Source: an uncultured Candidatus Saccharibacteria bacterium (GTDB lineage: Bacteria > Patescibacteriota > Minisyncoccia > Phycocordibacterales > PALSA-1337). From it: 64,000 bases of DNA. How positions within the stretch are numbered: position 1 is the stretch's first letter; each line of letters opens with the position of its first letter. This document shows, one piece after another, positions 5,422-35,596 of this stretch. The stretch covers positions 43,948-107,947 of the forward strand of contig CAZRIX010000001.1 of assembly GCA_964600255.1 (NCBI GenBank), read 5' to 3'. Below the pieces are notes generated by a model. The model did not search any database, had not been told where the DNA came from, and saw nothing but the letters and a program-made list of their open reading frames with translations. A program made the translations under genes and the position numbers.

Positions 5422-7038
5422 ATGTGGTTAGACAAATTCAAGAAACCAGAAAACTATAAAGGATTTAGAAAGGAACCAGTAGCGTATTTTTGTGCTGAGT
5501 ATGCCCTCTTTGACCATACACCACTTTATGCAGGTGGACTTGGTATTCTAGCTGGAGACTATGTAAAAGAAATGGTAAAAGAAAACATGCCTGCCGTAGC
5601 GGTAGGCCTTTATTACCACAAAGAACATGAACACGGGCTTGATTTGAATAGAGAAAAAAAGACACCTACAGATCTGGGATTGAACTTAGTGAAAGATTCA
5701 AATGGGAATGTAGTCAAAATACCCATCCTACTCGGTGAAAGAACCGTCTATGTTCAAGTATGGAGCTGGAAAAAGAGTGAGTTGAACCTATACCTTCTGG
5801 ATACTCAAGTCGCTGAAAATAGTCCTATTGATTGGGATATTTGTGACTATCTATACGTGGAAGATAGAAATATCAGACTTAGACAAGAAATTATTCTAGG
5901 TATAGCCGGAGTTAGACTGCTTAAAGTTTTGGATATCAGACCATCAGTTTTTCATATGAATGAAGGTCATTCAGCTTTTCTAGCGTTTGAATTGATACGA
6001 CATGAGATGAAGAGTAGGAATATTGATTTCAAGACTGCGGTAAACTTTGCAAAACAGCGCATTGTTTTTACAAACCATACACTAGTTCCTGCTGGTCACG
6101 AATTGTTCAATATTGACACCATAAAAGATGTGGCGGCTGGATTTGCCAAAGATCTTGGGATTGATATAAACGAACTAGTTCAACTAGGATTCAATAGTGA
6201 GACAAATATGTTCTCTATGACGGAATTGGCTTTGACACTATCTACTAAGGTAAATGCAGTGAGTAAATTACATGCAGTTAAAGCGAAAGAAGTTTGGAAA
6301 TCTCATGAAGTGGAAGTAGTTACTAATGGTATATACGTAGATGATTGGGATCAATTGAAACACTATAGCCACAAGGAACTGAAGAGAAAACTGATAGATC
6401 ATGTTAATACAAATTGCGGAGTAAACTTCAGTGAAGATATATTAACACTTGGTTGGGCTAGGAGATTCGTCGATTACAAGAGACCTTTAGCGATTCTAGG
6501 AGACGTTGAGAGACTAAAGAAACTAGGGAAAGTTCAGATTGTATTTTCTAGTGCAATAAATTCTACATATTCCGAGGAGAATGAATACTATAAAGAACTT
6601 TTAAAGCTAAGCGAAAACGAACTTAAAGGTATGGTAGCTATTATTCCAGACTACGACATACATGTTGCAAAACTGATGACTTCTGGTTGTGACGTATGGC
6701 TCAATACTCCAATAGTTGGCCGCGAAGCTTGTGGTACAAGTGGAATGAAGGCCTGCCTAAATGGTGTACTACCCCTATCAACAAGTGATGGATGGGTTGA
6801 TGAAGTTGATCTAACTGATATTGGTTGGAAGGTAGAGGATGGAGAGATAACAAAAAACCTACTAGATGCATTAGAAAAAGAGGTTATACCTGAGTACTAT
6901 AACAATCAGGAAAGTTGGACAAGGAGAATGCGTAAGTCTAGAGAATTAATCGTGCGTGGCTTTGGAATGAATAGAGCCCTAAAGGAATATATCAACAATA
7001 TATACTTGCCAATATACAATACTAGGAAAAATAACTAG
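5422..7038 (+). CDS. glgP: Alpha-glucan (glycogen/maltodextrin) phosphorylase, GT35
   Basis: FCAEYALFDHTPLYAGGLGILAGD N-terminal signature. EACGTSGMKA pyridoxal-phosphate lysine motif. Confidence 0.8.
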   Translation: MWLDKFKKPENYKGFRKEPVAYFCAEYALFDHTPLYAGGLGILAGDYVKEMVKENMPAVAVGLYYHKEHEHGLDLNREKKTPTDLGLNLVKDSNGNVVKIPILLGERTVYVQVWSWKKSELNLYLLDTQVAENSPIDWDICDYLYVEDRNIRLRQEIILGIAGVRLLKVLDIRPSVFHMNEGHSAFLAFELIRHEMKSRNIDFKTAVNFAKQRIVFTNHTLVPAGHELFNIDTIKDVAAGFAKDLGIDINELVQLGFNSETNMFSMTELALTLSTKVNAVSKLHAVKAKEVWKSHEVEVVTNGIYVDDWDQLKHYSHKELKRKLIDHVNTNCGVNFSEDILTLGWARRFVDYKRPLAILGDVERLKKLGKVQIVFSSAINSTYSEENEYYKELLKLSENELKGMVAIIPDYDIHVAKLMTSGCDVWLNTPIVGREACGTSGMKACLNGVLPLSTSDGWVDEVDLTDIGWKVEDGEITKNLLDALEKEVIPEYYNNQESWTRRMRKSRELIVRGFGMNRALKEYINNIYLPIYNTRKNN

Positions 7039-8012
7039 CGTGAGTCGCCGACTTTGTCGATAAACTGACCTAATAGCTTTTCAGTATTAATCTCCCTCTC
7101 ACCAAAATCAGAACGTAGTATTATTACCGCTATTGGATAGCGTTTGTTACCGATCTTTTTGTCGAAAAGTGTAACCATAGCTTCTTTTGCCTCATTTGTT
7201 CTACCAGTCTTCCCTCCTATAAATTCAGGATATGTTACAAACGGATTGATATTTATCAGACTATTTGATCCATGAGTGGTCGTTGTTGCAATATCAATTT
7301 GCTGAACCCTAGAAATCCTGAGTATATCCGGCTCTGAGCGATATAAGTATTTTGCTAATATAAACAAATCATTTGCATTCGAGATATTTCCAGAACTTAA
7401 TCCTGATGGATCCTTGAATGACGTATTACTCATACCAATTTCCTGAGCGAAAGCATTCATACTTTCGATAAATTTATCGTAACCATATGAGTAAGCAAAG
7501 GCTTCTGCCGCATCATTACTCGAAACTAGAAGCAGACTGTGCAGTAGTTCACCTATATTGTATCTCTCATCAAGTTTAAGTCCCCCAGAATCACCGTAGG
7601 CATCTAGCATTGGTTGGGTTATAGCGATACTAATATTTGGATCGAGAATGTGCTTTACCACAAGAGATGTATACAATTTACTAACTGATGCTATTGGAAA
7701 GACTTTACTTGGATTGTACTGTAGGTATCTCTCACCGGTTTCTAGATTGGCCACAAGGTATGACTCTGCCGTTATATATGGTTTTATTACAATTTTTGCC
7801 GGCTCTTTGATTTCTGTCTTTTTAGCAGTAATAGGCTGCTCATGATCATCTAAAAGAATGCTTGAGTCCAGCCTATTATTTAAAGTGCCGACTGGTCTAT
7901 CCAGCTGCACGGCTCGGTTTAGTTCAGGTAATCGAGAATTGATATCCTTGACCGAAGCGACAATCAATACCAAAACTATACAGAAAATTAAAAGGTATTT
8001 ATTGCTATTCAT
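7035..8012 (-). CDS. D-alanyl-D-alanine carboxypeptidase (S11, PBP5/6-like)
   Basis: Signal anchor. SVSKL (SxxK) motif, SSND (SxN) motif and KTG motif. Confidence 0.7.
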   Translation of the reverse strand: MNSNKYLLIFCIVLVLIVASVKDINSRLPELNRAVQLDRPVGTLNNRLDSSILLDDHEQPITAKKTEIKEPAKIVIKPYITAESYLVANLETGERYLQYNPSKVFPIASVSKLYTSLVVKHILDPNISIAITQPMLDAYGDSGGLKLDERYNIGELLHSLLLVSSNDAAEAFAYSYGYDKFIESMNAFAQEIGMSNTSFKDPSGLSSGNISNANDLFILAKYLYRSEPDILRISRVQQIDIATTTTHGSNSLININPFVTYPEFIGGKTGRTNEAKEAMVTLFDKKIGNKRYPIAVIILRSDFGEREINTEKLLGQFIDKVGDSR

Positions 8013-8052
8013 TTAATACATTATACATCATATTTGCATATGAAGTCTGCCC

Positions 8053-8634
8053 CTACCTTGTAGCTTCGATGTTGGGAGTTATTTCACCCGTAGCACTAAC
8101 TACGATACGTCCGTTGGTATCCTTTGATATCAAATACTTTGTATCATAATCAGTAACTGATGTGAATTTGGCTCCAGTAGCTGTTGGATCAAAAGGTAGG
8201 CTCGATATGTATGTTGGAATCAAACATGAAGCGATATCAACACCCTGAGTCGTATCACTACTTATTACCTTTGGTGTACTTGGTATAACAACGGGACAGT
8301 TGAACACTCCGCGATTCTCGGCCATGTTCTGTCCAACGGCATTTAGGATTGCTGTCACATTACTAACCCTTTGTGAATCGTGTGCTAGCTTGAATTGACG
8401 TGATGGATTGATCGCTACTAGAACTATTGCAGATAGTACGGCAATGATACCTATTACCACCAATATTTCGATCAGAGTAAAACCGGAATTAGTTCTGAGA
8501 CTGCCTGACTTACGCGTCACAACAGGATCTCCAGCCCCAACCTTACTCCTTGCATTACTCACACCACCCCTCATTATTTTAATTTTATTATTCATTGTTT
8601 CTTGTATTATTAATAATATGTAAATCTTACACAA
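8053..8634 (-). CDS. Type IV pilin (prepilin with G/FTLIE processing site)
   Basis: GFTLIEILVVIGIIAVL class III signal with Glu at +5. The leader is long, so the true start may be an internal Met. Confidence 0.7.
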   Translation of the reverse strand: MCKIYILLIIQETMNNKIKIMRGGVSNARSKVGAGDPVVTRKSGSLRTNSGFTLIEILVVIGIIAVLSAIVLVAINPSRQFKLAHDSQRVSNVTAILNAVGQNMAENRGVFNCPVVIPSTPKVISSDTTQGVDIASCLIPTYISSLPFDPTATGAKFTSVTDYDTKYLISKDTNGRIVVSATGEITPNIEATR

Positions 8635-8687
8635 AACTAATTAAGGATCTTTAAATTAAAGATTAAAAAGTTATGAATTTTTTATAA

Positions 8688-9056
8688 CTAATTTACTATT
8701 TCCAAATAGCTATCAAAAAGCCTGACTTGTGAAGTCATCTTTACGTCTATATTCATATAATTCCCAGTCACATCAATAGTTACCACGCCATTTTTCTCAT
8801 CAACGCGATCAATACTACAATCAAAGTCAACCATCTGAGTTGATGTCGATACTCTATAGTAGAAATCATATGACAAGTTCAATATCGCTTGATCTATACA
8901 CGAAAGAGCATTGTAGTGATTCATGAGCCTATATTCCTTTGTCCTAGTTTGATCAAAGAAATGAGCTATTGCTATTGTTTTACTAAAAGACAAAGCCAGA
9001 AGTAGACCAGTTACAGTAATTACCAGTGTTATAGATATGAATCCTTTATTATTCAT
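8688..9056 (-). CDS. Small membrane-anchored protein. Possible degenerate pseudopilin.
   Basis: N-terminal KGFISITLVITVTGLLLALSF hydrophobic segment with no Glu at +5. Sits between prepilin genes in the same strand run. Confidence 0.35.
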   Translation of the reverse strand: MNNKGFISITLVITVTGLLLALSFSKTIAIAHFFDQTRTKEYRLMNHYNALSCIDQAILNLSYDFYYRVSTSTQMVDFDCSIDRVDEKNGVVTIDVTGNYMNIDVKMTSQVRLFDSYLEIVN

Positions 9057-9216
9057 GATAGTTTTTTATTAATTTTTCATAGTCAGCATCTGTAAAGTCT
9101 GAATGATTGGTTCCTGACCTAACATAGCTGAGAACAAGTGAAAACACTCCAGTCATGAGCACTGACACCAGAGAGATATAGACTATGAGTTCAAGTATAG
9201 AAAAGCCTTTTTTCAT
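9053..9216 (-). CDS. Small prepilin-like protein (~54 aa), absent from the ORF track
   Basis: Reverse-complement reading gives MKKGFSILELIVYISLVSVLMTGVFSLVLSYVRSG... with a G/FSILE class III signal. Its stop overlaps the start of the next gene. Confidence 0.5.
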
Positions 9217-9217
9217 A

Positions 9218-10534
9218 TTATTTTAAATCGATCATTAAGAAACCTTTCATATCTCCAGTAGCAAAATATAATCTTGAATTGTCACACGTCATTTTTACAA
9301 CCGATCCAACTAGCGGATAGCTTTGTTTCAGATTTAATAGACTAGGATCATACACTTGTAGTTCCTTACCAGTTGCATGAGTTAATAAAAGCAAATCACT
9401 TGGAGTCTGTATAATCCCATACACACCACCAGGAATATCTTTTGAGATAGTCGAGGTACCGAATACAAATACTTCGTGGTTACTTGTAACGTTAAAGCCA
9501 CCGACCGTTCTACCCAACATCAATCTATCCTCAAACATATTGATTGTTTTACCCTCCTGAGTCTGCCATCCGCTCGATGTAAATGAGTCTATTAGTCTAG
9601 GCTGTGATTTATCTTTTACATCAAGTACTCTCATCTGCATTTCGTCTGATGTAGCCAAATAGACCTTATCACCGGTGGCGTATATATCATTTACCAAGGT
9701 ACCAGTCTCATAGCTTCCAACCACAAATGGAAACTTTTTATCCGAGACATTTATAATATTTAACTCTGGACCATTCCATTTTGTCGTACCGAGATATATA
9801 TGGTTTCTATAATAGAAAATTGACGTAGCGATAGGTGGCGTGGTGGTTGGTGTTGGTAAAGGTAATCTCAACTGAGATATAAGTTTTGGATTGGTACGGT
9901 CGCTAATATCAACTATCTGCAACTGATTGGCTGTACTCGCCTGCGCAACAAACATATACGGTCCAGCAACTTCAAGTGACTTTATACCTGGACCAGTATG
10001 CAGTGACGACAGTATTCTTGGTATGTCCGCATCTGAATTATCAACTATATACAAATCCGGCAGGGATACATTACTTGAATCAGTTGATAGATATACGACA
10101 TCGTTTCTTGCCTCTATGTCTGAACTATAGTTACCCACTCCCGTATTTATACCAGTTGTGTATTCCCTTAACTGGCTGGGGTCGAAACTGAGTCTGGGAT
10201 AGCAAGCACCTCTTCCCCATGCATCAGTGTAGTTTGAGTGTGCAAGAGTAAAGATCTCATTAGAATATCTCATAGTACTATTACCATACATTGTTGAACT
10301 GGCGTATATACCGCGATCAAAGTCACGGACTAATAACTCCATTCGGTCTAACTCATTTAATGACCAAATCTTTAACCTTTGCATAGATAGATCAAGACTA
10401 AATATTGATATGGTAAAAATGGTAAAGATTGAAAATGCCAACATTACTTCAACAATCATAAACCCGCGATTTCTTATCTTCATTTTACTTCCACTTACTT
10501 TCACATTATTTTGATAGATGGTTTGAGATCTCAT
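9218..10534 (-). CDS. Large prepilin-like protein (minor pilin or tip adhesin candidate). N-terminal class III signal, repeat-rich extracellular domain.
   Basis: MKIRNRGFMIVEVMLAFSIF prepilin signal. The start is more likely the internal Met at ~10483. ~420-aa beta-rich body. Confidence 0.55.
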   Translation of the reverse strand: MRSQTIYQNNVKVSGSKMKIRNRGFMIVEVMLAFSIFTIFTISIFSLDLSMQRLKIWSLNELDRMELLVRDFDRGIYASSTMYGNSTMRYSNEIFTLAHSNYTDAWGRGACYPRLSFDPSQLREYTTGINTGVGNYSSDIEARNDVVYLSTDSSNVSLPDLYIVDNSDADIPRILSSLHTGPGIKSLEVAGPYMFVAQASTANQLQIVDISDRTNPKLISQLRLPLPTPTTTPPIATSIFYYRNHIYLGTTKWNGPELNIINVSDKKFPFVVGSYETGTLVNDIYATGDKVYLATSDEMQMRVLDVKDKSQPRLIDSFTSSGWQTQEGKTINMFEDRLMLGRTVGGFNVTSNHEVFVFGTSTISKDIPGGVYGIIQTPSDLLLLTHATGKELQVYDPSLLNLKQSYPLVGSVVKMTCDNSRLYFATGDMKGFLMIDLK

Positions 10535-11582
10535 ATACAGGCAAAATTATTGATAGAGCAATAGATCCAACCACTAAGCCCATAAAAACCATTAGCACCG
10601 GCTCTATAAGTGAAGTAAAACTCTTTAATACATTCTCTATTTCTTGTTCAAATATCCTAGCCGTATGTCCGAAAAGCGCACCGAGGTTGCCTGTCTTTTC
10701 CCCAATACTAACCATATCAATCATCAAGCTTGGTATATACAATTTAGATCTATCCAAAGATATTGATAGTGCAATACCATTCAAAGATTCTGCATAAACT
10801 CTATTGAATGTATTCTTCAATACTGAGTTTGAATTTGAATCCCGAGCAAATACAAGAAGCTCCTGAATGCCTCTGCCGGAGTTAAGTAGCATTTCTCCCA
10901 TACTGCATATCGGTATCATCATATTTATTTTTGTATATTTATGAACTATGGGTATAGACAGGATAAGTAGATCGAACTTGTATTTAACCGTGGTGGATTT
11001 TAGGATAAGAATTCGAAGTAGTACACCTAGGACCAAGCCTGAAACAAGTGCATATATTCCAAACTCAGTCATGAGATAGTAGATCTCCTGCACTATTCTA
11101 GTCATGAGTGGTAGCTCAATATCTAGACTAGATAATAGAGGAACTATTTTAGGAAAAATATAAAGGATTAGAAAAAGCGACATAAAGATAGTGGCGATAA
11201 ATATAAATATTGGATACACCAATGCACTAACTATCTTCTTTTTTAACTCACTCTTTTTATAAAGATAGTTGTATGCCTGCAACAGTGAATCTGAAAGAGT
11301 TCCATTCTGCTCTCCGTTTTCTATGAGTATTAGCAGTAAACTATTGAATCTTAAGTTCTGGTTCCTTATAGATTTACTCAGACTTAATCCATGTTGAATA
11401 CTATTCACTATCTCTCCTAGCATATTTTTCTTACCTATAGAATTTTCTATCTTGCGGATCATCTCTAACCCATCGACAAGTGATATTCCGGAATTTAGTA
11501 ATATAGACAATCTCTGTGCAAAGTGTATTTGATCTGCCAGACTAAAAATCCTACTATTCATGTAATGTTCGATTGACTTCAT
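10506..11582 (-). CDS. pilC: Type IV pilus/T2SS platform protein (GspF/PilC family)
   Basis: Two T2SSF-like repeats with polytopic TM topology. Lies directly downstream of the PilB ATPase. Confidence 0.75.
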   Translation of the reverse strand: MKSIEHYMNSRIFSLADQIHFAQRLSILLNSGISLVDGLEMIRKIENSIGKKNMLGEIVNSIQHGLSLSKSIRNQNLRFNSLLLILIENGEQNGTLSDSLLQAYNYLYKKSELKKKIVSALVYPIFIFIATIFMSLFLILYIFPKIVPLLSSLDIELPLMTRIVQEIYYLMTEFGIYALVSGLVLGVLLRILILKSTTVKYKFDLLILSIPIVHKYTKINMMIPICSMGEMLLNSGRGIQELLVFARDSNSNSVLKNTFNRVYAESLNGIALSISLDRSKLYIPSLMIDMVSIGEKTGNLGALFGHTARIFEQEIENVLKSFTSLIEPVLMVFMGLVVGSIALSIILPVYEISNHLSK

Positions 11583-12690
11583 TTTCAGTTGTTATTCCAT
11601 TTTCTACTTTTATCATTGCGTCCTCATACATTGTCTTCATACCTTTGGAACGGGCATAAAGGGTAATATCTGCCATAGATGTTCGAGTCATTATGTATTT
11701 TCTCATTTCATCATCAACCATGAGTGTTTCTGCAACGACGGTTCGACCTTTATATCCAGACCCATCACATACCAAACATCCGCAACCAGCCCCGAAACAC
11801 ACCCTGCAAGTCTTTCTCACTAGTCTCTGGGCAATAACTAGTGAAAGAGTCGATGCTACTAGATACGGATCTATACCCATATCTACAAGCCTAGGAATTG
11901 CTCCTAGGGCCGAGTTTGTATGCAAAGTGGATAGAAGCAAATGACCAGTCAAAGAAACGTTTGTGGCAATGACAGCAGTCTCTTTGTCACGTATCTCACC
12001 TACCATTATGATATCTGGATCCTGTCTAACGATGGATCTCAATCCATTTGCAAAAGTAATACCGTGTTTTGAGTTTATTTGTATCTGCCTTACATCTGGG
12101 ATTGCGTATTCTATTGGATCCTCTAGTGTGATTATTGAGTTCTTGTTGGTAGCAAGTGATGCAATGAGTGTATACAGGGTCGAAGTCTTTCCGGACCCGG
12201 TTGGACCTGTTACCAATATCATTCCCTGATGCAATGACAGACTTGTAAGTATTCTATCTACATCTAGCTCAGAAAATCCGAGACTGCCTAGTGTAGGAAT
12301 TTCTTTGTCATTCTTTAATATTCTAAGTACAGCATTCTCTCCGTAGTGTGTCGGTATGATCGAAACTCTCACGTCACAGTTAAATGATAATTGAGCAAAC
12401 TTAAATCTTCCATCTTGTGGTACAAAATGTATATCTGTTCGTAATCCAGACACTACTTTTATCCTAGCTATTACTTCTTCATGGGTATCGTGCAAAAGTG
12501 TATCTATCACCGTCAAAACCCCATCTATCCTAAACTTAACAACTGTACCGTTTGGTGATGGGTCTATGTGTATGTCGGATGCATTTCTATACAAAGCAAA
12601 GGTAACTATAGAGTCTACCAGCTCTACAACAGAAACGATGTCATGCAACATTTTTTCGTTATTAATAATTTTATATATCTTTTCTTGCAT
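11554..12690 (-). CDS. pilB: Type IV pilus assembly ATPase (GspE/PilB family), short form lacking the N-terminal domain
   Basis: Walker A GPTGSGKTST. Asp and His boxes. C-terminal tetracysteine CRVCFGAGCGCLVC. Confidence 0.8.
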   Translation of the reverse strand: MQEKIYKIINNEKMLHDIVSVVELVDSIVTFALYRNASDIHIDPSPNGTVVKFRIDGVLTVIDTLLHDTHEEVIARIKVVSGLRTDIHFVPQDGRFKFAQLSFNCDVRVSIIPTHYGENAVLRILKNDKEIPTLGSLGFSELDVDRILTSLSLHQGMILVTGPTGSGKTSTLYTLIASLATNKNSIITLEDPIEYAIPDVRQIQINSKHGITFANGLRSIVRQDPDIIMVGEIRDKETAVIATNVSLTGHLLLSTLHTNSALGAIPRLVDMGIDPYLVASTLSLVIAQRLVRKTCRVCFGAGCGCLVCDGSGYKGRTVVAETLMVDDEMRKYIMTRTSMADITLYARSKGMKTMYEDAMIKVENGITTENEVNRTLHE

Positions 12691-12823
12691 GCGAAAAGAT
12701 TAACAAAATGAGATTAAGAGAATATAAAAGATTAATAAAAAAGTGATAAAAAGACCTATATACTGTGAATATCTTTGTAAATTATGTCGTTATACACATA
12801 TACACAGCCATAATTGATTTTGC

Positions 12824-13582
12824 TTGTTTTTTGTTGTATATTACTATCCGGCTGTTCTTCTCGTTTTTAACGTTAAGAAATCTCCAGCTACGCTAGAAAA
12901 TTCGGTGAAAGGAATAAGAGTGAGAAAACTGGTTCACTTTGGCCTCCACGGCCCATCATGCTCCGGAAAGGGCTACGTCACAGGTCACCTATGCGAACGC
13001 TATCACGGACACGTCTTCGTGATTGGTCTAGGTGACATGATTCGTGCTCGGCGCAGTGCCGATCCAGAATTCAGAGCCTATACTGACCAACAGACGCGCG
13101 ACGGTGTGATGATAGATGACGCGATTGTCACAGAAATGACTCGAGTCCGATTCGAGGAAGGCCTTCGTGCCGGATACGACACCTTCATCTGGGAAGGTTT
13201 CGGACGCAACTACACCCAAATGAAGCAGCAAATGGAGTGGTGGGGCAAAAATGATGGTCGTATCTTCAACCTCCTAGCAGGCCTAGACACAGTGGTCGAG
13301 AGACTTCGTAAGGCAATCAGTGAGGGCAGACGATCTGATCGAGAAGATAACGGTGCGATCACTGTACGTTTTGCGCTTCACGACAGTCAGATGAGTGAAG
13401 TTGCGCGGGCGGTAAGGAACGCTGACCGTTTCTTGACCCCGATCGATGCGAGCGTTGATTTGGGGTTGTTTGCTCGCAAAATTGCGTTCTACGCCAACGG
13501 AGTGCGTGGTTTTAGGGAGGCTTCAGCCCCCACAGAATCATACATGAACAGCCAGCGTACTGCGGATGCAGTTGCAGCATAG
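12824..13582 (+). CDS. P-loop nucleoside-monophosphate kinase, adenylate-kinase-like. High-GC foreign gene. True start is probably near 12905-12930.
   Basis: GLHGPSCSGKGY P-loop. GDMIRA and GFGRNYTQ resemble the adenylate kinase GDLLRA and GFPRT motifs. GC is ~53% in an AT-rich backbone. Confidence 0.45.
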   Translation: MFFVVYYYPAVLLVFNVKKSPATLENSVKGIRVRKLVHFGLHGPSCSGKGYVTGHLCERYHGHVFVIGLGDMIRARRSADPEFRAYTDQQTRDGVMIDDAIVTEMTRVRFEEGLRAGYDTFIWEGFGRNYTQMKQQMEWWGKNDGRIFNLLAGLDTVVERLRKAISEGRRSDREDNGAITVRFALHDSQMSEVARAVRNADRFLTPIDASVDLGLFARKIAFYANGVRGFREASAPTESYMNSQRTADAVAA

Positions 13583-13676: not shown

Positions 13677-15872
13677 CTACCCAACCCATTCTTCAACCAT
13701 CAACATTTTCTTGTCCTGTATAGGCATATCTTTCCAAATCTCTTCTGTTACATATGGAATAAATGGATGTAGTACTTTTAATATTTTTGCCAACGTATGC
13801 AATAGGAACTGCTTGCGGGATTTTATCTCCATTTCATTTCCCTCTTTTAATATTTTCTTACTATCCTCAAGTATTACATCTGCAAAGTTATGCCATGCAT
13901 AGTGGTACAACTTCTCTGCTGCTAGGTATAGACGATAATTCTCAATGTCACCGGTAATCTCTTTTAGTAGACTTGATAGCTCTTCATTTAGTTTTGCATC
14001 AGCATCACTCCACTTATCAAATCCCTTATCCAATTCTTCCCCATCAACTGAAGTCAAAACGAAGCGAGTGATATTCCAAAGCTTATTTGCAAAATGTTTG
14101 TAACCCTTGATCTTATCTTCAGAAAGTTTCAAATCATTACCCGGTCCATTACCTATGATCAAAGACAAGCGTGTTGCATCAGCGCCGTATTTCTCAATCA
14201 TATCGAGAGGATTGATGTTAGTTTCTGGCTTTGACTTAGACATTTTCTCTCCACTTGCTGTACGTACTAGTCCATGTAAATACACAGTTTTAAATGGGAC
14301 AGTATCAAGCAAACATCCAGTCATTAGTATCATACGAGCTACCCAGAAGAAAAGAATATCGTATCCGGTCTCTAGTAAATCAGTTGGATGGAAAGTATTT
14401 AGATCTACAGTCTTCTCTGGCCAACCGAGAGTAGAGAAAGTCCAAAGTCCAGATGAGAACCAAGTATCCAAGGTATCCTCATCTTGCTTCCAGCCCTCAC
14501 CCTTTGGTGCCTCAACTCCAACATAAATCTCTTCACCCTTGTACCAAACAGGAATTCTATGACCATACCAGATCTGTCTTGAAATACACCAATCTCGAAG
14601 ATTATTTATCCAACTAAAATATGTTTTCTCAAATCTATCTGGAACAATATTTATCTTCTTACTCTCAACAGCATCAATCATCATTTCCTTGAGAGTTCTC
14701 TCCTTCCCATTTTTCTTAAACTTTTTGTTAACAGCGATGAACCATTGCAACATAACTTGTGGCTCTATAATTCCACCAGTTCTCTCGGCCGTCGCAACGT
14801 TGTGAGTATAATCTTCTTCTTTTACCAAAAGACCTTTTTCCTTCAACTTCTCTAGCATCTTTTTCCTTGCCTCAGCAATTTTCATTCCAGCAAATTCTCC
14901 GGCGATTGGAAGTAGTTTGCCAAGTCTATCTATAATCTGTTCACCTTCAAGATTATGTCGTTGGGCGATATCAAAGTCCACCATACTATGGAAAGGAGTA
15001 ATAGTCATAACTCCAGTACCAAATTCCATATCGATAGAATCATCCTTTATGATAGTTGCCGTGATGGGTCCGTTTATCCATTCCAAATCAATTTTCTGTC
15101 CATGCTTGTAATCCTCATATCTCTTATCGTCTGGATGCATTACGACGTACTTATCACCGAACTTTGTCTCAGGTCGTGATGTACCAATAGTAAAAGGTCC
15201 GTACTTGAAATAATAAAACTTTGTCTTCTCTTCAACATAAACAATCTCATCGTCAGAAATGGTTGTCTGTCCTTTTGGATCCCAGTTAACTATTCTATTG
15301 CCACGATAAATGAGACCTAGGTCATACATTTCTTTAAATGCAGTTCTTACGGCTAGATTTCTTTTTTCATCCAAAGTAAAAGCTTCGCGAGACCAGTCTA
15401 TAGATGCTCCCATTTTTATAACTTGCCCGACAATAGTATCGTGACTAGCCAAAGCAAAGTCATTCACTCTTTTCAAAAATTCTTCACGCCCCAAGTCATG
15501 ACGGTTCTTGCCTTCTTTCTTTGTTAAATCTTTCTCAACTTTAGATTGAGTAGCGATTGCAGCATGATCAGTTCCAGGAATCCAAAGAGTTTTGTACCCT
15601 CTCATTCTCTTAAAACGAATCAAAATATCCTCTATAGCAATCATAGCAGCGTGACCCATATGCAAAGTTCCAGTAACGTTCGGTGGAGGCAAAACGATGG
15701 TATATGGCTCTACATGACGAGCAGGAAGCTTGTCAGGATTGAAATACCCACTAGCAAGCCACTCTTCGTAAGTTCGACTTTCGACCTCTAGGTGGTTGTA
15801 TGGCTTTAGGAATTTCTCATTTATGTTTGGATTAATATAACCCTCCTTCTGCTCTTTGATGTCTTTGCTCAT
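13677..15872 (-). CDS. valS: Valyl-tRNA synthetase (short form)
   Basis: PPPNVTGTLHMGHA (HIGH) and KMSKS motifs. Editing-domain region present. 731 aa. Confidence 0.8.
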   Translation of the reverse strand: MSKDIKEQKEGYINPNINEKFLKPYNHLEVESRTYEEWLASGYFNPDKLPARHVEPYTIVLPPPNVTGTLHMGHAAMIAIEDILIRFKRMRGYKTLWIPGTDHAAIATQSKVEKDLTKKEGKNRHDLGREEFLKRVNDFALASHDTIVGQVIKMGASIDWSREAFTLDEKRNLAVRTAFKEMYDLGLIYRGNRIVNWDPKGQTTISDDEIVYVEEKTKFYYFKYGPFTIGTSRPETKFGDKYVVMHPDDKRYEDYKHGQKIDLEWINGPITATIIKDDSIDMEFGTGVMTITPFHSMVDFDIAQRHNLEGEQIIDRLGKLLPIAGEFAGMKIAEARKKMLEKLKEKGLLVKEEDYTHNVATAERTGGIIEPQVMLQWFIAVNKKFKKNGKERTLKEMMIDAVESKKINIVPDRFEKTYFSWINNLRDWCISRQIWYGHRIPVWYKGEEIYVGVEAPKGEGWKQDEDTLDTWFSSGLWTFSTLGWPEKTVDLNTFHPTDLLETGYDILFFWVARMILMTGCLLDTVPFKTVYLHGLVRTASGEKMSKSKPETNINPLDMIEKYGADATRLSLIIGNGPGNDLKLSEDKIKGYKHFANKLWNITRFVLTSVDGEELDKGFDKWSDADAKLNEELSSLLKEITGDIENYRLYLAAEKLYHYAWHNFADVILEDSKKILKEGNEMEIKSRKQFLLHTLAKILKVLHPFIPYVTEEIWKDMPIQDKKMLMVEEWVG

Positions 15873-15960
15873 ATATTTATGTATTGAATAATAGCAGAAA
15901 AAGGGGCCTTTTGACTAGTTTTTTATATAAAAAACATTCAATTTTGTCTAATCTTTACTA

Positions 15961-16082
15961 TTGACTTTTCATATAAAATGTGCTAATATATTAGGAGAAG
16001 TTAGAGAAAACTGAGTACTCTGCCGTGCTTTGCACGGAGTGGAGGAAAAAGTGATCTTTGACAATTTAACAGGAGATAGTGT
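15961..16082 (+). promoter_or_regulatory. Consensus-like sigma70 promoter (TTGACT-17-TAATAT) plus conserved structured leader, copy A
   Basis: TTGACT at 15961-15966, 17-nt spacer, TAATAT at 15984-15989. The leader has a CCGTGC/GCACGG hairpin and GGAGG tracts. Copy B at 17070 is near-identical. Confidence 0.6.
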
Positions 16083-16970
16083 ATGGACATTAGTTTTAAC
16101 AAGGAAACCAACGTTTTGAGATGGACCCCAGTTCTATTAACAGATCGATATGTAGTGAAGATGGAAGGTGGAACTGCTCCAGATGACTGGACTAATGAGT
16201 ACTCAGTCCCTGAAACAGTAACCGGCATTAAACTAGTTGAATCGGCGTACTGGGGCAACATCAAGGAAACTGGTGCGAAGATAACCATCACTGCGCTCGA
16301 TGATAGTAGGAGCACTCTGGATACTGTCGACATCAACATTACCATCCCGAAGCAGAAGTGGCACCAGGGAGCGGCCGTGAGGCTGTTCATGCTACTGGCG
16401 GTCCTACTCGGCGCTTGGGCGTCATACTCACAGTACAAATTGGGTAAGGCCAATGACGTTATGGCTGAGCGGGATGAAGCAAAAACACTTCTTGCTGCTC
16501 AGGTGACACTGACAGCAGACTGGAAGAAGGCACACGACAAAGCTACCAACCAGCCAGTTGTAACATTGTACGAAACCAATGTGGTAACGGTGCCTGTGTA
16601 CGAGAAGATCAAAGTCTACGACATCCCGCAAGGGATGCCGAAGGCTGGACCAGCGACGAATGATACGTTGGTCCATTACTTCTCGCCTACCAACCAGCAC
16701 ACGGTGACGAAGTTCATCACCGATGGAGATGGGACTATGTTCCTCACTCCAAACGACTGGCAGATCAACTGCCTGGTCTACGGTAACGTGGCCGATTTCG
16801 ATCGGCTCGTGAACATCGGGGGACTTACCAACCCCCACTGGATCCATTACGGACCAGGAACAAAACTTCCAGAGGCGACCAAGGTGGTCGCATATTGGAT
16901 TAGAAACCGAGTGCAGAACTCCCACCTCAAGGTGGAGTTCGTGCTCACACCCGTCGCCTCTACTCCATAG
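16083..16970 (+). CDS. Hypothetical membrane protein (single central TM) in the high-GC island
   Basis: 295-aa ORF with RBS AGGAGA. GC ~50%. Central hydrophobic helix AAVRLFMLLAVLLGAWASY. No recognisable motif. Confidence 0.5.
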   Translation: MDISFNKETNVLRWTPVLLTDRYVVKMEGGTAPDDWTNEYSVPETVTGIKLVESAYWGNIKETGAKITITALDDSRSTLDTVDINITIPKQKWHQGAAVRLFMLLAVLLGAWASYSQYKLGKANDVMAERDEAKTLLAAQVTLTADWKKAHDKATNQPVVTLYETNVVTVPVYEKIKVYDIPQGMPKAGPATNDTLVHYFSPTNQHTVTKFITDGDGTMFLTPNDWQINCLVYGNVADFDRLVNIGGLTNPHWIHYGPGTKLPEATKVVAYWIRNRVQNSHLKVEFVLTPVASTP

Positions 16971-16990
16971 CAAAGCGCGACCGGCAAAGG

Positions 16991-17025
16991 GAGCCTGGGA
17001 TTTTATTCCAGGCTCTTTTCTTTTG
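16991..17025 (+). terminator. Intrinsic terminator
   Basis: GAGCCTGG-N9-CCAGGCTC perfect 8-bp stem followed by TTTTCTTTT. Confidence 0.65.
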
Positions 17026-17069
17026 TGTGTTTACTAAATAATTTAAAGATTTTTAAAGCATAATTACCA

Positions 17070-17182
17070 TTGACTTTTCATTTAAAATGTGCTAATATAT
17101 TAGGAGAGTTAGAAGGCCAAGTACTCTGACACGCTGTAGCGTGGAGGGAGGAAAGGAAGAACTTTGACAACAAGGATAATTC
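17070..17182 (+). promoter_or_regulatory. Consensus-like sigma70 promoter plus conserved structured leader, copy B
   Basis: TTGACT at 17070-17075, 17-nt spacer, TAATAT at 17093-17098. The hairpin ACGC/GCGT sits where copy A has CCGTGC/GCACGG, which is a compensatory change. Confidence 0.6.
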
Positions 17183-18112
17183 GTGAAAAAACTATCATAC
17201 GAGTCGCAATTTTGGAGATTAGTCGTCTCCATCATGTCACTGCCCATAACGATGTACGTCATCTACAAGGTCGTATACACGGTTGTTGTATTCATGCGAT
17301 TCGATCCATCGGTGGCCGAGAAGTTAGCGAACTGGGTAGGCCTACCGGCCTCCTGGTATATCTACTTCAAGTTCCTACTCGAACGGTTCTGGATTGATGT
17401 AGCACTTGAAGACGTGGTCCTAGAAGATTCCTTCAGTTTCCGGAACAGGAAGGTCGGTGATCAAGCAGACCCATTGGCTTTGCCGAGTGGTCTGAGGTCA
17501 GTTGGTGGACCAGGGTTCAGAGCGAAGGGTTTCTTTGAGACCGTCAAGACGAGATTACCTGTAGTATCTAAAGAGAAGAATGGTGGCCTCGAAGTCGACG
17601 ACAAGCAAACGAACACCTTCAACGTCAGTTACTCCATGACATTTACTAGGGTCAGGGGTAAATTCTCTGTGATTGGTTCAACCTACAAAGAGGAAGAGGC
17701 AGTTAAAACCCTCGAAGCCATCGTTGAGGCGCGAATTGAGGAATTATTCGCAAACGAGCAGGATGGTAGGAATATCCGGGCTTCACTTGATAAACGTAAC
17801 GAGGATCTCTCTAAGGTCCTCGGCGGCGATCGAGATATCAGCACCGAAGAGATTCGTTGTGGGTTCTTCATAACAAAACTTCGAATCAAGACGGTTGATG
17901 AGGCTGCAGCAACAAAACAGCGTAACCAGACCCAAGCGCTGGCAACAGCTGTGAATTCTGCAGCAGATGCTCTATCAAAGGGTATCGGGGCTGGAGCAGA
18001 TCCAAACCTTATTATGGCCCTTGCTGCAAGTGCAGCTGGGGTTAAGGGTGACGGAGTTAAAGTGAGTATAGTCAAGGGTCTCGAGAAAGGCGGCACATAC
18101 AACGTAAGTTAA
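17183..18112 (+). CDS. Membrane protein with weak SPFH/band-7-like features (GTG start)
   Basis: N-terminal TM helices. Central region and Ala/Gln-rich C-terminal helix loosely resemble stomatin/HflKC organisation. Unknown function. Confidence 0.4.
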   Translation: MKKLSYESQFWRLVVSIMSLPITMYVIYKVVYTVVVFMRFDPSVAEKLANWVGLPASWYIYFKFLLERFWIDVALEDVVLEDSFSFRNRKVGDQADPLALPSGLRSVGGPGFRAKGFFETVKTRLPVVSKEKNGGLEVDDKQTNTFNVSYSMTFTRVRGKFSVIGSTYKEEEAVKTLEAIVEARIEELFANEQDGRNIRASLDKRNEDLSKVLGGDRDISTEEIRCGFFITKLRIKTVDEAAATKQRNQTQALATAVNSAADALSKGIGAGADPNLIMALAASAAGVKGDGVKVSIVKGLEKGGTYNVS

Positions 18113-18113
18113 C

Positions 18114-18554
18114 ATGAACACCACACTTCTCAAAAAACTGGCGTGGTATGGGCCAATCGCGGCGATACTAATCGCTACGATGTTCTACATCCGATCCTAC
18201 AACGGGTCAGAAAAGAAGGTACAGCACGTCCCTGTCACTGGCGGTGGTAAGGCTTCGGCAACCACCACAATCACGATCATCAAGGGGGCAACTCCTAGGA
18301 TGATCGATTACCCACATTTCTCCCGGTTCAGATCGGGAATTGTGGAAGATGACGTTGCGTACGTCATACACATCAATCTCGTCGGTCGGCCTGACCATGA
18401 GATTGAAAAAATATTCGTACCTGCCAGAAACGACAGACCGAGCAATTGGTCTGATCCGCTCGCAGGCAAGAATATTGCGAGGATCGGGTTTACGCTCGAT
18501 CCTTCCTCGGCCAAGGATATTGGCCACATCGAGTACGTAGTCGAGAGGCAGTAG
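18114..18554 (+). CDS. Hypothetical membrane-anchored protein, probably co-transcribed with 17183..18112
   Basis: ORF begins 2 nt after the upstream stop. N-terminal TM. High GC. Confidence 0.45.
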   Translation: MNTTLLKKLAWYGPIAAILIATMFYIRSYNGSEKKVQHVPVTGGGKASATTTITIIKGATPRMIDYPHFSRFRSGIVEDDVAYVIHINLVGRPDHEIEKIFVPARNDRPSNWSDPLAGKNIARIGFTLDPSSAKDIGHIEYVVERQ

Positions 18555-18580
18555 ATAATACCACCACTCGAAAACGGCAA

Positions 18581-18608
18581 AGGGGGACCCTATGGGACCC
18601 CCTTTTAC
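18581..18608. terminator. Bidirectional intrinsic terminator between the island and the pilin array
   Basis: GGGGGACCC-TAT-GGGACCCCC hairpin with an A-run upstream and a T-run downstream. Confidence 0.6.
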
Positions 18609-18636
18609 TTTGCATATTTTATTCTAAACAACTTCC

Positions 18637-18966
18637 CTACTGGAATGGATCAGTAACACCCACTGGTGCAAGTGTACTGACTATAACCCTAATTATCCCA
18701 TATGCCGATACCATGATGAACATTCCCGCCGCACTCCAGAATATACTTCTCTTGCCGTCTTCTCTTGCATCAGAATCCTCCTGACTCGCAATCATTTTGA
18801 ATATGCCGTACACAAATGTTACAAAAGACAGTAGGAACATTACACCAAGAATCGGTGTGATTATGTTCAAAGCAATACTATCTAGAAAACCACGTATAGT
18901 GGGGTTCTTCGATAGAACTTGTGACGCAGACTGTGCGTGAGCAATGTTTATCAAGCTAATCATCAA
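18637..18966 (-). CDS. VirB2/TrbC-like two-TM pilin-family protein, paralog 1
   Basis: Signal peptide ending AHAQS. Hydrophobic helix, short Asp/Glu/Arg-rich loop (QEDSDAREDGKRS), second hydrophobic helix. Confidence 0.5.
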   Translation of the reverse strand: MMISLINIAHAQSASQVLSKNPTIRGFLDSIALNIITPILGVMFLLSFVTFVYGIFKMIASQEDSDAREDGKRSIFWSAAGMFIMVSAYGIIRVIVSTLAPVGVTDPFQ

Positions 18967-18973
18967 ATTGGAT

Positions 18974-19345
18974 TTATGGAATCTGTGGTGGTGGTGGAAG
19001 CTGAATGTTGTTTACCTTGTCTGTTGGAAGATTGTTTTGTCCAAACTGGAATGAGTTTGTTAGAAGATATACAAGTCCCCAGATTGATAGGATTGCAAAT
19101 AGACCTATAACTCCATAAAGTATAGCCTGTCCCCCCTTCTTACGAGCTTCCTCATCATCACTACCTGCGATTAGGTATCTGACAACACTGATTATGATCC
19201 ATAGAACTGCAAATGAGATAGCTAGTCTAACGAGCAAGTTACCAATATTTGTTGCCTTCATTGCAACAGAGTTGATGTCATTTAGCTGTTGAGCAAATAC
19301 AAGCGTAGGTGAAAATGCGATAATGGCTGCGATTATTTTTTTCAT
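18974..19345 (-). CDS. VirB2/TrbC-like two-TM pilin-family protein, paralog 2
   Basis: Signal peptide ending VFAQQ. TM. AGSDDEEARKKGGQAILYGVIGLFAIL loop and TM. ~75% identical to paralog 3. Confidence 0.55.
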   Translation of the reverse strand: MKKIIAAIIAFSPTLVFAQQLNDINSVAMKATNIGNLLVRLAISFAVLWIIISVVRYLIAGSDDEEARKKGGQAILYGVIGLFAILSIWGLVYLLTNSFQFGQNNLPTDKVNNIQLPPPPQIP

Positions 19346-19423: not shown

Positions 19424-19795
19424 CTATATATTAGAATTAATCGTAGGGTCCTGTATTCTCAAATTGTTAAAATTTGGTCTTTGATCTTCAGAGAATCTAA
19501 ATGTATTTACTAGAAGATATACCATTCCCCAAATAGACAAAATCGCAAATAGACCAATAACACCATAAAGTATAGCATCACCACCCTTCTTGCGAGCATC
19601 CTCATCGTCACTACCTGCGATTAGGTATCTGACAACATTTACGATTATAAATACTACAGCCAGTGAAATTGCTAACTGGATTACAAGATTACCAATGTTT
19701 ACACTCTTCTGCGCCACATCATTAATATCTCGTAGCTGTTGTGCTGATGCAAATGCTGGAAATAGGATTGTTGTTAGAGTAAGTATTTTTTTCAT
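19424..19795 (-). CDS. VirB2/TrbC-like two-TM pilin-family protein, paralog 3
   Basis: Same architecture. Loop AGSDDEDARKKGGDAILYGVIGLFAIL. Confidence 0.55.
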   Translation of the reverse strand: MKKILTLTTILFPAFASAQQLRDINDVAQKSVNIGNLVIQLAISLAVVFIIVNVVRYLIAGSDDEDARKKGGDAILYGVIGLFAILSIWGMVYLLVNTFRFSEDQRPNFNNLRIQDPTINSNI

Positions 19796-19802
19796 ATTTT
19801 AT

Positions 19803-20411
19803 TTAATTACCTGATGGGTCCGAACCTGTAGCACCGGATTCTGATGGTTGTGTACCACCAGTACTAGGTGACCCACTCGGAGAGTTTGATGTACTACCAG
19901 ATCCGCTACCATTTGAATTCCCTGTTGCTGGCGATCCGCTTGGTCCATTGAAAACATTACCTGAACCGCTTGGAGGGTTTGTTGTTCCACTAGTGCCACT
20001 TGAAGGGTTTGTTGTAGCTCCACTCACACTTGGAACTGTATTACCACCAGATGTACTGCCACCACCGCCATTGAAATTCACAAATGATGGTACGGTTCCT
20101 GGTTGTCTACTATCTAACTGTAGTGTATTAGTAAATATTGCGACTATTCCCCAGAACGAAAGTATTACAAAGAATCCAATTACACTGAATAATACGTACT
20201 TACCTGCTTCAGTTCTGTCCTTTTCAGTAAAGAAGTAGATGAATACATTCCAAACAAACACCACAACGGCAAGACCTATGATCAGTGATAAGGCTATGTT
20301 TAGATATTCAGCTACTAGACGCGCTAGATCCTTCAGTGACTTGCCCTGCGCAAAAGTAAAACCGGGTAAAAGTAGTGTTAATAGTAATAATTTGCTTTGT
20401 AATTTATTCAT
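19803..20411 (-). CDS. VirB2/TrbC-like two-TM pilin-family protein with Gly/Ser/Thr/Pro-rich C-terminal tail, paralog 4
   Basis: Signal peptide. TM. TEKDRTEAGKYVLFSVIGFFVIL loop and TM. Then a ~100-aa low-complexity GSTPN tail. Confidence 0.5.
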   Translation of the reverse strand: MNKLQSKLLLLTLLLPGFTFAQGKSLKDLARLVAEYLNIALSLIIGLAVVVFVWNVFIYFFTEKDRTEAGKYVLFSVIGFFVILSFWGIVAIFTNTLQLDSRQPGTVPSFVNFNGGGGSTSGGNTVPSVSGATTNPSSGTSGTTNPPSGSGNVFNGPSGSPATGNSNGSGSGSTSNSPSGSPSTGGTQPSESGATGSDPSGN

Positions 20412-28670: not shown

Positions 28671-28760
28671 TTGACTTTGAGCATGACTCGGCTATAATTT
28701 GTACATTATACGGACATGGTCGCATCGAGATTCCCCGCCTTAAAGCGGGGTTTCGTTTTA
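28671..28760 (+). ncRNA. Candidate small RNA unit: promoter TTGACT-16-TATAAT plus ~55-nt transcript ending in an intrinsic terminator
   Basis: TTGACT at 28671-28676. TATAAT at 28693-28698. CCCCGCC-TTAAA-GCGGGG hairpin at 28733-28750 followed by TTTCGTTTT. No ORF between them. Confidence 0.35.
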
Positions 28761-34390: not shown

Positions 34391-35596
34391 ATGGCAAGCA
34401 ATATAATCACAGGAATAGATGTAGGAACACATCACGTAAAAGTGGTTATTGCTGATGCTTCAGAAAAAAATGAAAAGGTTGTCAAAGGTGATAACCGAGG
34501 TCAGCCAAAAATAATAGGTATTGGCTTGATAGAGACTCGAGGACTACGTCACGGCTATGTACTAAACATACAAGACGTAATAGCCAGTATTAAACAAGCA
34601 ATCCTTGAAGCTGAGAAAAGAGCTGATGTGAAAGTAAAGAAGGCCTATCTATCTATAGGTGGTATTGGTCTTGGAAGCATTACTTCATCAGGATCAACAA
34701 TCATCACACGTGCAGATTTAGAAATAACAAACCTAGATATTAAAAGAGTGCAGGAGCAGTGTGAAAAAGATATTCCACCCGCAGCGTCTTTGAATAGAAA
34801 AATAATTCATAGTATTCCAGTTCAGTACAAAATAGATGGAAAGCCAGCATTGGGCAAACCTGAAGGAATGCATGGTAGTAAATTTGAAGTTAAGACTTTG
34901 TATATAACATGCCTAGAACAACACCTAAACGACATAATAGAAGCGGTTGAGGAATCAGGTATTAGTGTACAAGACGTAATGGCTTCACCTATTGCAGCAA
35001 GTTTGGTAACACTAACCAAGTCACAGAAAATCGCAGGTTGCGTACTTGCAAACATCGGTGCTGAGACCGTTTCAATTGCCGTCTTTGAGAACAATATTCC
35101 TGTATCACTAGAAGTCTTCCCTATCGGATCTACAGATATCACTAACGATATCGCTCTCGGTCTAAAAGTACCGCTTGAAGAAGCTGAACAAATAAAGATT
35201 GGTGCAATCACTGGAACTTCATATCCAAGGAAGAAACTTGAAGAAATCGTTTCTGCTAGAATGTCAGATATTTTTGAACTTATTGAAGCTCATTTGAAAA
35301 AGATTGGACGAAATGGATTACTTCCAGCAGGAATTATTCTAACTGGTGGTGGTGCAGGTCTATCAGGAATAGAAGATATGGCAAAGTCATCACTTAGACT
35401 TCCAGCTCGTATCGGAAGCCTGAACCTTGGCCTACCAGAGAAAAACGGATTGAAGGATCCAGCATGGGCAGTGGCCTACGGTCTATGTATTCTGGGTATG
35501 CATGCGGATCAGGACACACCTATAGATTCTAGCTCGAGAATTTTTGAAAATTCAAAGAAAACTATACTAGCGTGGCTAAAGCAGTTTTTGCCATAA
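34391..35596 (+). CDS. ftsA: Cell division protein FtsA
   Basis: Actin-fold ATPase. ITGIDVGTHHVKVV phosphate-1 motif. Directly upstream of ftsZ. Confidence 0.8.
   Translation: MASNIITGIDVGTHHVKVVIADASEKNEKVVKGDNRGQPKIIGIGLIETRGLRHGYVLNIQDVIASIKQAILEAEKRADVKVKKAYLSIGGIGLGSITSSGSTIITRADLEITNLDIKRVQEQCEKDIPPAASLNRKIIHSIPVQYKIDGKPALGKPEGMHGSKFEVKTLYITCLEQHLNDIIEAVEESGISVQDVMASPIAASLVTLTKSQKIAGCVLANIGAETVSIAVFENNIPVSLEVFPIGSTDITNDIALGLKVPLEEAEQIKIGAITGTSYPRKKLEEIVSARMSDIFELIEAHLKKIGRNGLLPAGIILTGGGAGLSGIEDMAKSSLRLPARIGSLNLGLPEKNGLKDPAWAVAYGLCILGMHADQDTPIDSSSRIFENSKKTILAWLKQFLP

Follow-up and report, generated by a model that had tools for sequence, protein, structure and literature searches.

Which surface machine is encoded by the six tightly packed minus-strand open reading frames (ORFs) that run from 12690 to 8053 in the DNA stretch shown above, and what is the task of its large pilin-like protein? 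The stretch, here called the window, comprises 64,000 nucleotides (nt) of contig CAZRIX010000001.1 from an uncultured Candidatus Saccharibacteria bacterium, and the six ORFs encode, in the direction of reading, an ATPase, an inner-membrane platform protein of the PilC/GspF type, three proteins of 438, 55 and 122 amino acids (aa) and a 193-aa pilin. We consider it reasonably likely that they specify a reduced type IV pilus of Patescibacteria, most likely of a member of the class Paceibacteria, in which three minor pilins prime assembly, end up together as a complex at the tip and present a β-propeller as ligand binder. An initial annotation, made from the sequence alone, had seen at this place a minimal type IV pilus operon on one strand, which is confirmed by the six ORFs, by the families to which ATPase and platform belong, and by four proteins with a pilin fold or a prepilin signal.

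The large protein is predicted to fuse a pilin helix to a propeller

The start of the third gene can be placed at 10534, leading to a protein of 438 aa (the IMG call), or at a second Met at 10483, leading to one of 421 aa (the NCBI record). A database search with this large protein revealed 148 homologues at 33-96% identity, every one of them annotated as hypothetical; the few homologues with a named source came from Taylorbacteria, Paceibacterota or a 'Patescibacteria group'. In a 40-sequence alignment, the signal residues Gly-1, Phe+1 and Glu+5 (Glu in at least 90% of the sequences) and the hydrophobic helix that follows are conserved, and two Cys residues, 95 and 401 in the numbering of the 422-aa query, are invariant. 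The AlphaFold (AF2) model obtained with this alignment (predicted local distance difference test (pLDDT) 92, predicted template modelling score (pTM) 0.86) shows an N-terminal helix of about 50 residues (8-57), a three-strand meander or sheet and then seven four-stranded blades, and the propeller part accounts for about 300-360 residues after the α1 helix. The invariant Cys pair would tie the N-terminal strand to blade 7 and probably locks the propeller closed. The match to LVIVD (PF08309) lies above the Pfam gathering score and agrees with the propeller fold, and a class III signal with its α1 helix followed by an independently folded domain, as read from sequence and predicted structure, is the build of modular pilins. 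According to its predicted structure, therefore, the large protein is a modular minor pilin in which a pilin helix is fused to a seven-bladed LVIVD β-propeller. It is not the unrelated enzyme that the initial annotation had reckoned with, given the pilin helix and seven-bladed propeller of the AlphaFold model and a class III signal kept across homologues.

When 1.84 billion cluster representatives were searched with a profile of the propeller family, about 100 of the best 150 representatives were proteins of 390-590 aa that aligned from profile position 1-13 and thus included the pilin helix; alignments of this kind indicate that the window protein belongs to a family of modular pilins that is large and uncharacterised. 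The remainder of the best 150 consisted of giant proteins of 1400-6900 aa with 10-31 LVIVD stretches (P0147, P0148, P0151, P0257 and others), which are multi-propeller surface proteins. The propeller domain was acidic in 40 of 40 homologues, with a median isoelectric point (pI) of 4.9 (range 4.5-5.9) and a median net charge of -12, which argues against DNA as its ligand.

A short downstream gene encodes a headless pilin

For the next gene, the initial annotation had proposed a small prepilin ORF of about 54 aa at 9053..9216 with the motif G/FSILE. The ORF is real and the motif right, and the protein has 55 aa, encoded by 9049..9216 when the stop codon is included. That the ORF was missing from the ORF track, as had also been remarked, fits its absence from the products of the record of the 381-kb NCBI contig, whereas a JGI/IMG contig has the identical protein annotated under the name 'pseudopilin PulG'. 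The mature protein of 51 aa consists of a hydrophobic α1N helix and a 23-residue tail that ends in DYExLIKNFHE. A relative at 63% identity possesses the same six genes, and an N_methyl protein of 55 aa is among the gene calls there. Of 73 loci with enough downstream sequence, 37 have a short ORF (42-98 aa, mostly 52-61) directly behind the gene for the propeller pilin, and the 43 distinct short-pilin sequences have KGF[ST]LIE, the hydrophobic helix and the C-terminal DYExLIKNFHE in common. When the 55-aa gene was compared with those of six relatives, the proportion of nonsynonymous differences (pN, 0.28-0.44) was well under that of synonymous differences (pS, 0.61-0.87, often saturated), indicating that the gene is under purifying selection. 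The initial annotation had let its claim depend on conservation of this ORF in relatives, and with position, length and motif kept in 37 loci and pN below pS, the claim holds. The gene is real and its product, as judged from sequence, is a headless pilin.

At the same position, distant loci encode a 159-180-aa pilin that has the motif GFTLIE..IY.ALFS in common with the 55-aa protein, and in intermediate lineages the third-position pilin is already as short as 53-69 aa. These similarities suggest that the 55-aa pilin is probably a truncated copy of the minor pilin that occupies the ComGF/GspJ position in distant relatives. A Flp/Tad-type pilin was considered for the 55-aa protein and ruled out, as GF[ST]LIE is followed by a Tyr at +9, which is not the G/xxxxEY of Flp pilins, and the assembly machinery belongs to the PilB/PilC type.

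The remaining two pilin-like proteins: a cap-like subunit and the probable major pilin

The 122-aa protein carries a Thr at position +5 and, among the sequences listed from a 64-sequence alignment of its family, the N-terminus reads KGF[IV]ALT and Glu never occurs at +5; two Cys residues are invariant in a 15-sequence alignment (A2). AlphaFold (pLDDT 85) predicts a helix of about 60 residues followed by a four-strand sheet, that is, the lollipop fold of pilins, and the closest solved structures are the tip caps GspK/XcpX. GspK is a pseudopilin without Glu5 that caps the GspI-J-K tip (PDB 3ci0). A pilin fold without Glu5 is found in cap minor pilins of the GspK/PilX/ComGG type, the terminal subunits of the tip, and is found in the 122-aa protein as well; the inserted α-helical domain with a calcium site that is specific for GspK is missing, as the protein has 122 aa and its AlphaFold model contains no such insert. 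The model suggests that the protein is a GspK/ComGG-like cap pilin that lacks Glu5. It had been listed initially as a 122-aa membrane protein; the ORF is indeed present, and its product goes beyond a plain membrane protein in having a predicted pilin fold of its own, without Glu5 and resembling GspK.

In public records, the last gene starts with the ATG at 8595 and encodes 180 aa, giving a 38-aa leader and a mature protein of 142 aa with two conserved Cys. This pilin is very strongly conserved (GFTLIEILVVIGIIAVLAAVVLVAINPARQFKLARDSQR, two Cys, phmmer E-values down to 1e-76, 48 loci), its head has a pI of 5.7, and it readily suggests itself as the major subunit and is thus the probable major pilin. 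The leader of the window's protein (8482-8595, minus strand), MNNKIKIMRGGVSNARSKVGAGDPVVTRKSGSLRTNSG, is unusually long with its 38 residues. A similar lysine-rich leader extension occurs in a few relatives (loci L023, L027 and L057), and most leaders comprise 8-20 residues.

ATPase, platform and layout of the operon

The translated sequence of the ATPase displays Walker A (GPTGSGKT) and Walker B (IIMVGEIRD) motifs, a His box and a Cys cluster (CRVC...CGCLVC). In a sequence search of the PDB, it scored 314 bits with the core of Thermus PilF, 255-273 bits with PilB and GspE and about 109 bits with PilT. With NCBIfam models, scores of 418 bits for GspE, 378 for PilB, 239 for ComGA and 175 for PilT were obtained for the ATPase, and of 206 for GspF, 164 for Thermus PilC and 129 for ComGB for the platform, all of them under the equivalog cutoffs (GspE 630, PilB 676, ComGA 300, GspF 424 and ComGB 240 bits). 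The alignment of the ATPase to the GspE and PilB profiles begins only at about position 100 or 170, which indicates an extension-type enzyme with N2 and C-terminal ATPase domains only and no N1 domain. The median length of the ATPase ORF in relatives is 379 aa, so that a short ATPase is the norm in this family. Going by these alignments, the ATPase is a short extension-type enzyme of the PilB/PilF/GspE clade. Equivalog-level scores or defining components of the type IVa pilus, of the competence (Com) system and of the type II secretion system (T2SS) were not found.

The ATPase and platform genes overlap by 29 nt, the platform and propeller genes are separated by 22 nt or overlap by 29 nt, depending on the start chosen, a gap of 1 nt lies between the propeller and 55-aa genes, the 55-aa and 122-aa genes overlap by 8 nt, and 92 nt separate the 122-aa gene from that of the major pilin. 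Such overlapping or near-abutting spacing fits a single transcription unit for the six genes; scans of 6900..13000 for consensus promoters and terminators gave no excess of sites over shuffled sequence and leave the transcription unit undefined. In a six-frame scan, full prepilin motifs (G-[hydrophobic]-x-x-x-E plus a hydrophobic run) occurred exactly three times in the 64-kb window, always inside the operon, which makes a chance pattern implausible. Subunits with a class III signal thus comprise three ORFs with the full motif and a fourth with the same signal without Glu5. Together with ATPase and platform they provide three of the four features of the type IV filament superfamily; the fourth, a prepilin peptidase, is not encoded in the window. 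Other genes of such systems were searched for by Pfam scans of about 50 further ORFs of the window, among which no second T2SSE ATPase (PilT) and no PilN, PilO or PilQ were detected; the sole match to PilM_2 was weak and fell on FtsA at 34391..35596. The scans bear out the earlier statement that PilD, PilT and PilM/N/O/Q are absent from the window. GspC, GspD, GspL, GspM and a secretin were not found by Pfam in the window or in related loci.

Table 1. The six genes of the operon, in the order in which they are read
Product	Position	Strand	Length	Prepilin signal	Family matches
ATPase	12690..11554	-	378 aa	no motif	PF00437 T2SSE, E 1e-110
Platform PilC/GspF	11582..10506	-	358 aa	no motif	two PF00482 T2SSF domains, E 3e-44
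Propeller pilin	10534..9218	-	438 aa	RNRG/FMIVE	PF08309 LVIVD, 35 bits (cutoff 20); weak PF09826 Beta_propel
Headless micro-pilin	9216..9049 (stop included)	-	55 aa	KKG/FSILE	PF07963 N_methyl, E 4e-5
Glu5-less pilin-fold protein	9056..8688	-	122 aa	NKG/FISIT	no family match
Probable major pilin	8634..8053	-	193 aa from TTG	NSG/FTLIE	PF07963 N_methyl, E 5e-7; TIGR02532, 29 bits

The operon is conserved across Patescibacteria

For comparison, 83 loci were collected from metagenomes and from sets with one genome per species. The genes for ATPase, PilC and propeller pilin lie collinearly in 62 of the 64 informative loci, and members of the 122-aa family and of the major pilin family were detected in 57 and 48, respectively, of 73 loci. 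The collinear loci span Taylor-, Nomura-, Vogel-, Lipton- and Staskawiczbacteria as well as the more distant Uhr-, Falkow- and Doudnabacteria. Within 7 kb on either side of the operon, neither a second ATPase match nor PilM/N/O was found in about 80 related loci.

Distant loci possess five pilin genes. The first encodes a pilin of 145-168 aa with a weak full-length match to ComGD, the second the propeller pilin, the N-terminus of which weakly matches ComGE and PilV, and the third the pilin mentioned above (159-180 aa, or 160-174 aa in the five-gene loci), with a weak match to ComGF. A Glu5-less pilin of 130-140 aa and then the conserved major pilin are encoded by the fourth and fifth genes. 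On the basis of these weak matches and of established correspondences between Com and T2SS components, the gene order of the distant loci corresponds to the H-I-J-K order of core minor pilins, and the window's lineage may have lost the first minor pilin and cut the third one down to a bare helix. In summary, comparison of gene content and sequence indicates that the operon represents a large conserved family of Patescibacteria, well beyond a single genome.

Proposed assembly of the pilus and its tip

In the pilus that we propose, a prepilin peptidase encoded elsewhere would cleave the four pilin-like proteins after the conserved Gly. The three minor pilins would nucleate assembly on PilC as a priming complex and would end as the pilus tip, with the GspK-like 122-aa subunit that lacks Glu5 on top as terminal cap. 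The propeller pilin (421 aa) would insert its α1 helix into the filament core and display the seven-bladed LVIVD propeller outward, while the 51-residue headless pilin would fill the third helix position without adding a head, leaving room for a propeller of about 45 Å across. The ATPase would then polymerise the 142-aa major pilin beneath the tip complex. Since no PilT is encoded nearby, retraction, if there is any, would have to proceed without an ATPase, as it does in Com and type IVb pili. The propeller probably sits at the pilus tip in order to grip a target.

A bolder version, which we put forward only tentatively, is that propeller pilin, headless pilin and Glu5-less cap might form a previously undescribed minimal three-subunit tip, in which a propeller was grafted onto one core minor pilin and the head of its neighbour was stripped, and which, in an organelle conserved across Paceibacteria, would serve them as the main means of recognising a conserved ligand on a host or substrate. 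Such a three-subunit tip could also drive motor-independent retraction in the manner of TcpB. In type IVb pili, TcpB is a bulky minor pilin, and retraction is independent of a motor.

As to the role of the propeller within the tip-pilus model, attachment to a host cell or to a cell-wall glycan has, in our opinion, about an even chance of being correct. This adhesion reading draws on the precedent of PilX2 from Nanosynbacter lyticus TM7x, a minor pilin with a seven-bladed propeller that is needed for host binding and not for filament formation or competence (PMC11623550). The initial suggestion that the 438-aa protein is a candidate tip adhesin fits both this precedent (PMC11623550) and the anatomy of the protein, and we retain it at the rank of a candidate.

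Several points weigh against a pilus with a propeller-bearing tip. The mapping onto GspH/I/J/K relies on the order of the genes and on weak similarities that stem from the N-terminal helix (E 1e-3 to 1e-6), and structural support for an H/I/J/K position was obtained for the 122-aa protein only. The location of the propeller at the tip, and the role of the headless pilin in making room for it, are what we infer. Propeller and major pilin are unusually conserved for host-specific adhesins (mean column identity 48%, alignment A1), which suggests a conserved ligand. Finally, no match to Peptidase_A24 (PilD) was obtained among the roughly 50 other ORFs, an absence that concerns the window only.

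Alternative functions

It is unlikely, though credible, that the operon encodes a Com-type pseudopilus for DNA uptake, which would capture or admit extracellular DNA for import by ComEC and so supply nucleotide salvage in an organism unable to make nucleotides itself, with the propeller as a DNA receptor or as a wall-penetrating tip. The gene content resembles that of Com systems in that the short ATPase and the platform are accompanied by pilins only, and neither PilT nor PilM/N/O occurs within 7 kb on either side in about 80 loci; however, ATPase and platform score higher with GspE/PilB and GspF than with ComGA/ComGB and stay under the Com equivalog cutoffs. The minor pilins of distant loci weakly match ComGD, ComGE and ComGF in the Com order, but the major pilin gene is the last of the operon whereas comGC comes first. 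Unusual conservation of the pilins is what would be expected for a universal ligand, and ComZ of Thermus, a large tip receptor for DNA, provides a precedent; yet the propeller is acidic in all 40 homologues and the head of the major pilin has an acidic pI as well. The window encodes a staphylococcal-nuclease-type (SNase) protein of 204 aa (38666-39280, minus strand), which may serve the scavenging of extracellular DNA under dependence on nucleotide salvage, and Patescibacteria are widely reported to possess ComEC and pilus genes (PMC8672522; PMC10936435), but comEA, comEC and comF are not adjacent to the operon. The propeller-bearing type IV pilus T4P-2 of TM7x, though a different system, is dispensable for transformation (PMC11623550).

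We regard as improbable a T2SS-like pseudopilus that pushes proteins, for example the large surface glycoside hydrolase of the window described below, through the envelope. The best NCBIfam matches are indeed those to GspE and GspF, the 122-aa protein is closest to GspK and the IMG name of the 55-aa protein is PulG-like, but 418 and 206 bits are far under the equivalog cutoffs of 630 and 424 bits, GspC, GspD, GspL and GspM are found neither in the window nor in related loci, and a propeller on a pseudopilin would have no role in a piston model. To our knowledge, Patescibacteria possess no outer membrane, so that a secretin-based T2SS would have no place in them.

The least probable explanation, a non-pilus surface propeller with an uncleaved signal anchor that sits in the operon by chance, next to a 55-aa gene for a small membrane peptide, can appeal to the frequency of LVIVD propellers in non-pilin surface proteins, including the giant ones (1400-6900 aa) found with the propeller profile, and to the lack of a predicted PilD signal in TM7x PilX2 (PMC11623550), but is contradicted by the conservation of Gly-1, Phe+1 and Glu+5 across the family, by the pilin helix in about 100 of the best 150 cluster representatives, by the constant position of the gene between pilC and the remaining minor pilin genes, seen in 62 of 64 loci, and by the canonical KGF[ST]LIE of 43 distinct sequences of the 55-aa type.

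Neighbouring genes and other features of the window

A D-Ala-D-Ala carboxypeptidase of family S11 is encoded on the same strand 40 nt downstream of the major pilin gene (7035-8012, minus strand), as it is in 20 of 58 related loci, and an adenylate-kinase-like (ADK-like) P-loop protein is encoded divergently upstream of the ATPase gene (12824-13582, plus strand), as in 13 of 58 related loci. Both were set aside as parts of the system because they track closer relatives only, and their neighbourhood is probably inherited synteny. The carboxypeptidase gene could still be co-transcribed with the pilus genes.

Four tandem paralogues on the minus strand (18974-19345, 19424-19795, 19803-20411 and 20421-20846) match PF18895 T4SS_pilin with E-values of 7e-7 to 2e-11. 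This cluster is a second, unrelated pilin system, the conjugation-like type IV secretion system (T4SS) of monoderms that has been described for Patescibacteria. Between 16000 and 18600, the fraction of guanine plus cytosine rises to 0.48, compared with about 0.38 elsewhere; Pfam gave no match for the ORFs located there (16083-16970, 17183-18112 and 18114-18554), no Rfam match was obtained for 15800..19200, and the GC-rich stretch may be foreign or fast-evolving DNA. A protein of 2026 aa (42103-48183, minus strand) combines GH43, F5/8 type C (galactose-binding), CHB_HEX_C and four Ig-like Big_7 domains and, from this domain composition, has the appearance of a giant glycoside hydrolase or adhesin of the cell surface. 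A toxin of the MazF/PemK type (132 aa) is encoded at 28758-29156 on the minus strand.

Implications

Paceibacteria are among the most abundant uncultivated bacteria of groundwater and sediments, and the operon bears on how they find and hold hosts or substrates. Their tiny genomes encode few conserved surface machines, of which this is one, and the three proteins that reveal most about it are annotated as hypothetical. Recognition of the tip complex yields targets in organisms that cannot yet be cultivated, with the soluble propeller for ligand screens (host range, DNA capture) and the conserved pilin for antibodies and cryo-electron tomography. The operon also offers a natural example of the reduction of a type IV filament, lacking both an alignment complex and a retraction ATPase and having a bare helix as one of its minor pilins.

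Comparison with known systems

In a full-text search of the literature on LVIVD together with pilin, or on candidate phyla radiation together with pilin and propeller, the TM7x paper alone was relevant. The Paceibacteria papers mention pili only generically (PMC10936435; PMC8672522). A propeller-bearing pilin in Patescibacteria has therefore already been published with the TM7x work, and within the scope of our search no publication describes the LVIVD pilin family, the compact operon, the headless pilin or the mini-GspK cap. Like the operon studied here, T4P-2 of TM7x is a type IV pilus system of Patescibacteria without a retraction ATPase of its own, and its largest minor pilin has a seven-bladed propeller and was proposed as tip adhesin. 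However, PilX2 is built of RCC1 repeats and has no predicted PilD signal, whereas in the window protein the repeats are of the LVIVD type and the G/FxxxE signal is canonical and conserved. No Pfam match to RCC1 was found in the window's propeller pilin, which is of the same fold class and is set apart from the PilX2 family by the description of PilX2. In addition, PilB2, PilC2, PilM2, PilN2, PilO2 and the pilins of TM7x are split over two loci, in contrast to the single compact operon without PilM/N/O reported here.

The display of a functional module by means of a pilin-type N-terminus is the principle known from the modular pilins of Streptococcus sanguinis, PilB with a vWA module and PilC with a lectin module (PMC8179133); the module here is an LVIVD propeller, neither vWA nor lectin. 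PilY1 of type IVa pili resembles the system described here in placing a C-terminal β-propeller on a minor-pilin tip complex, but PilY1 is no pilin and binds the minor pilins non-covalently, whereas here propeller and pilin helix are parts of one polypeptide. When compared to the GspI-GspJ-GspK tip (PDB 3ci0, 5vtm), in which GspK has about 280 aa and a large α-domain insert, the 122-aa protein lacks the insert, the J-position subunit has been pared down to a bare helix, a propeller is attached to one of the subunits, and genes for a secretin, GspC, GspL and GspM are missing.

The ComG operon of Firmicutes (ComGA to ComGG) is similar in encoding a short ATPase without N1, a platform and otherwise only pilins, with no PilT or PilM/N/O and with the peptidase encoded elsewhere, and the minor pilins of the relatives weakly match ComGD, ComGE and ComGF in the same order. 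These matches to Com pilin profiles amount to 14-29 bits and lie under the cutoffs, as do those of the ATPase to ComGA (239 versus 300 bits) and of the platform to ComGB (129 versus 240 bits). In contrast to ComG, the major pilin gene is here the last and not the third, one minor pilin carries a propeller, and the heads are acidic and not suited for DNA. Taken together, the machine is a member of the type IV filament superfamily and works most like a Com-type system of monoderms or a minimal pilus with a T2SS-like tip.

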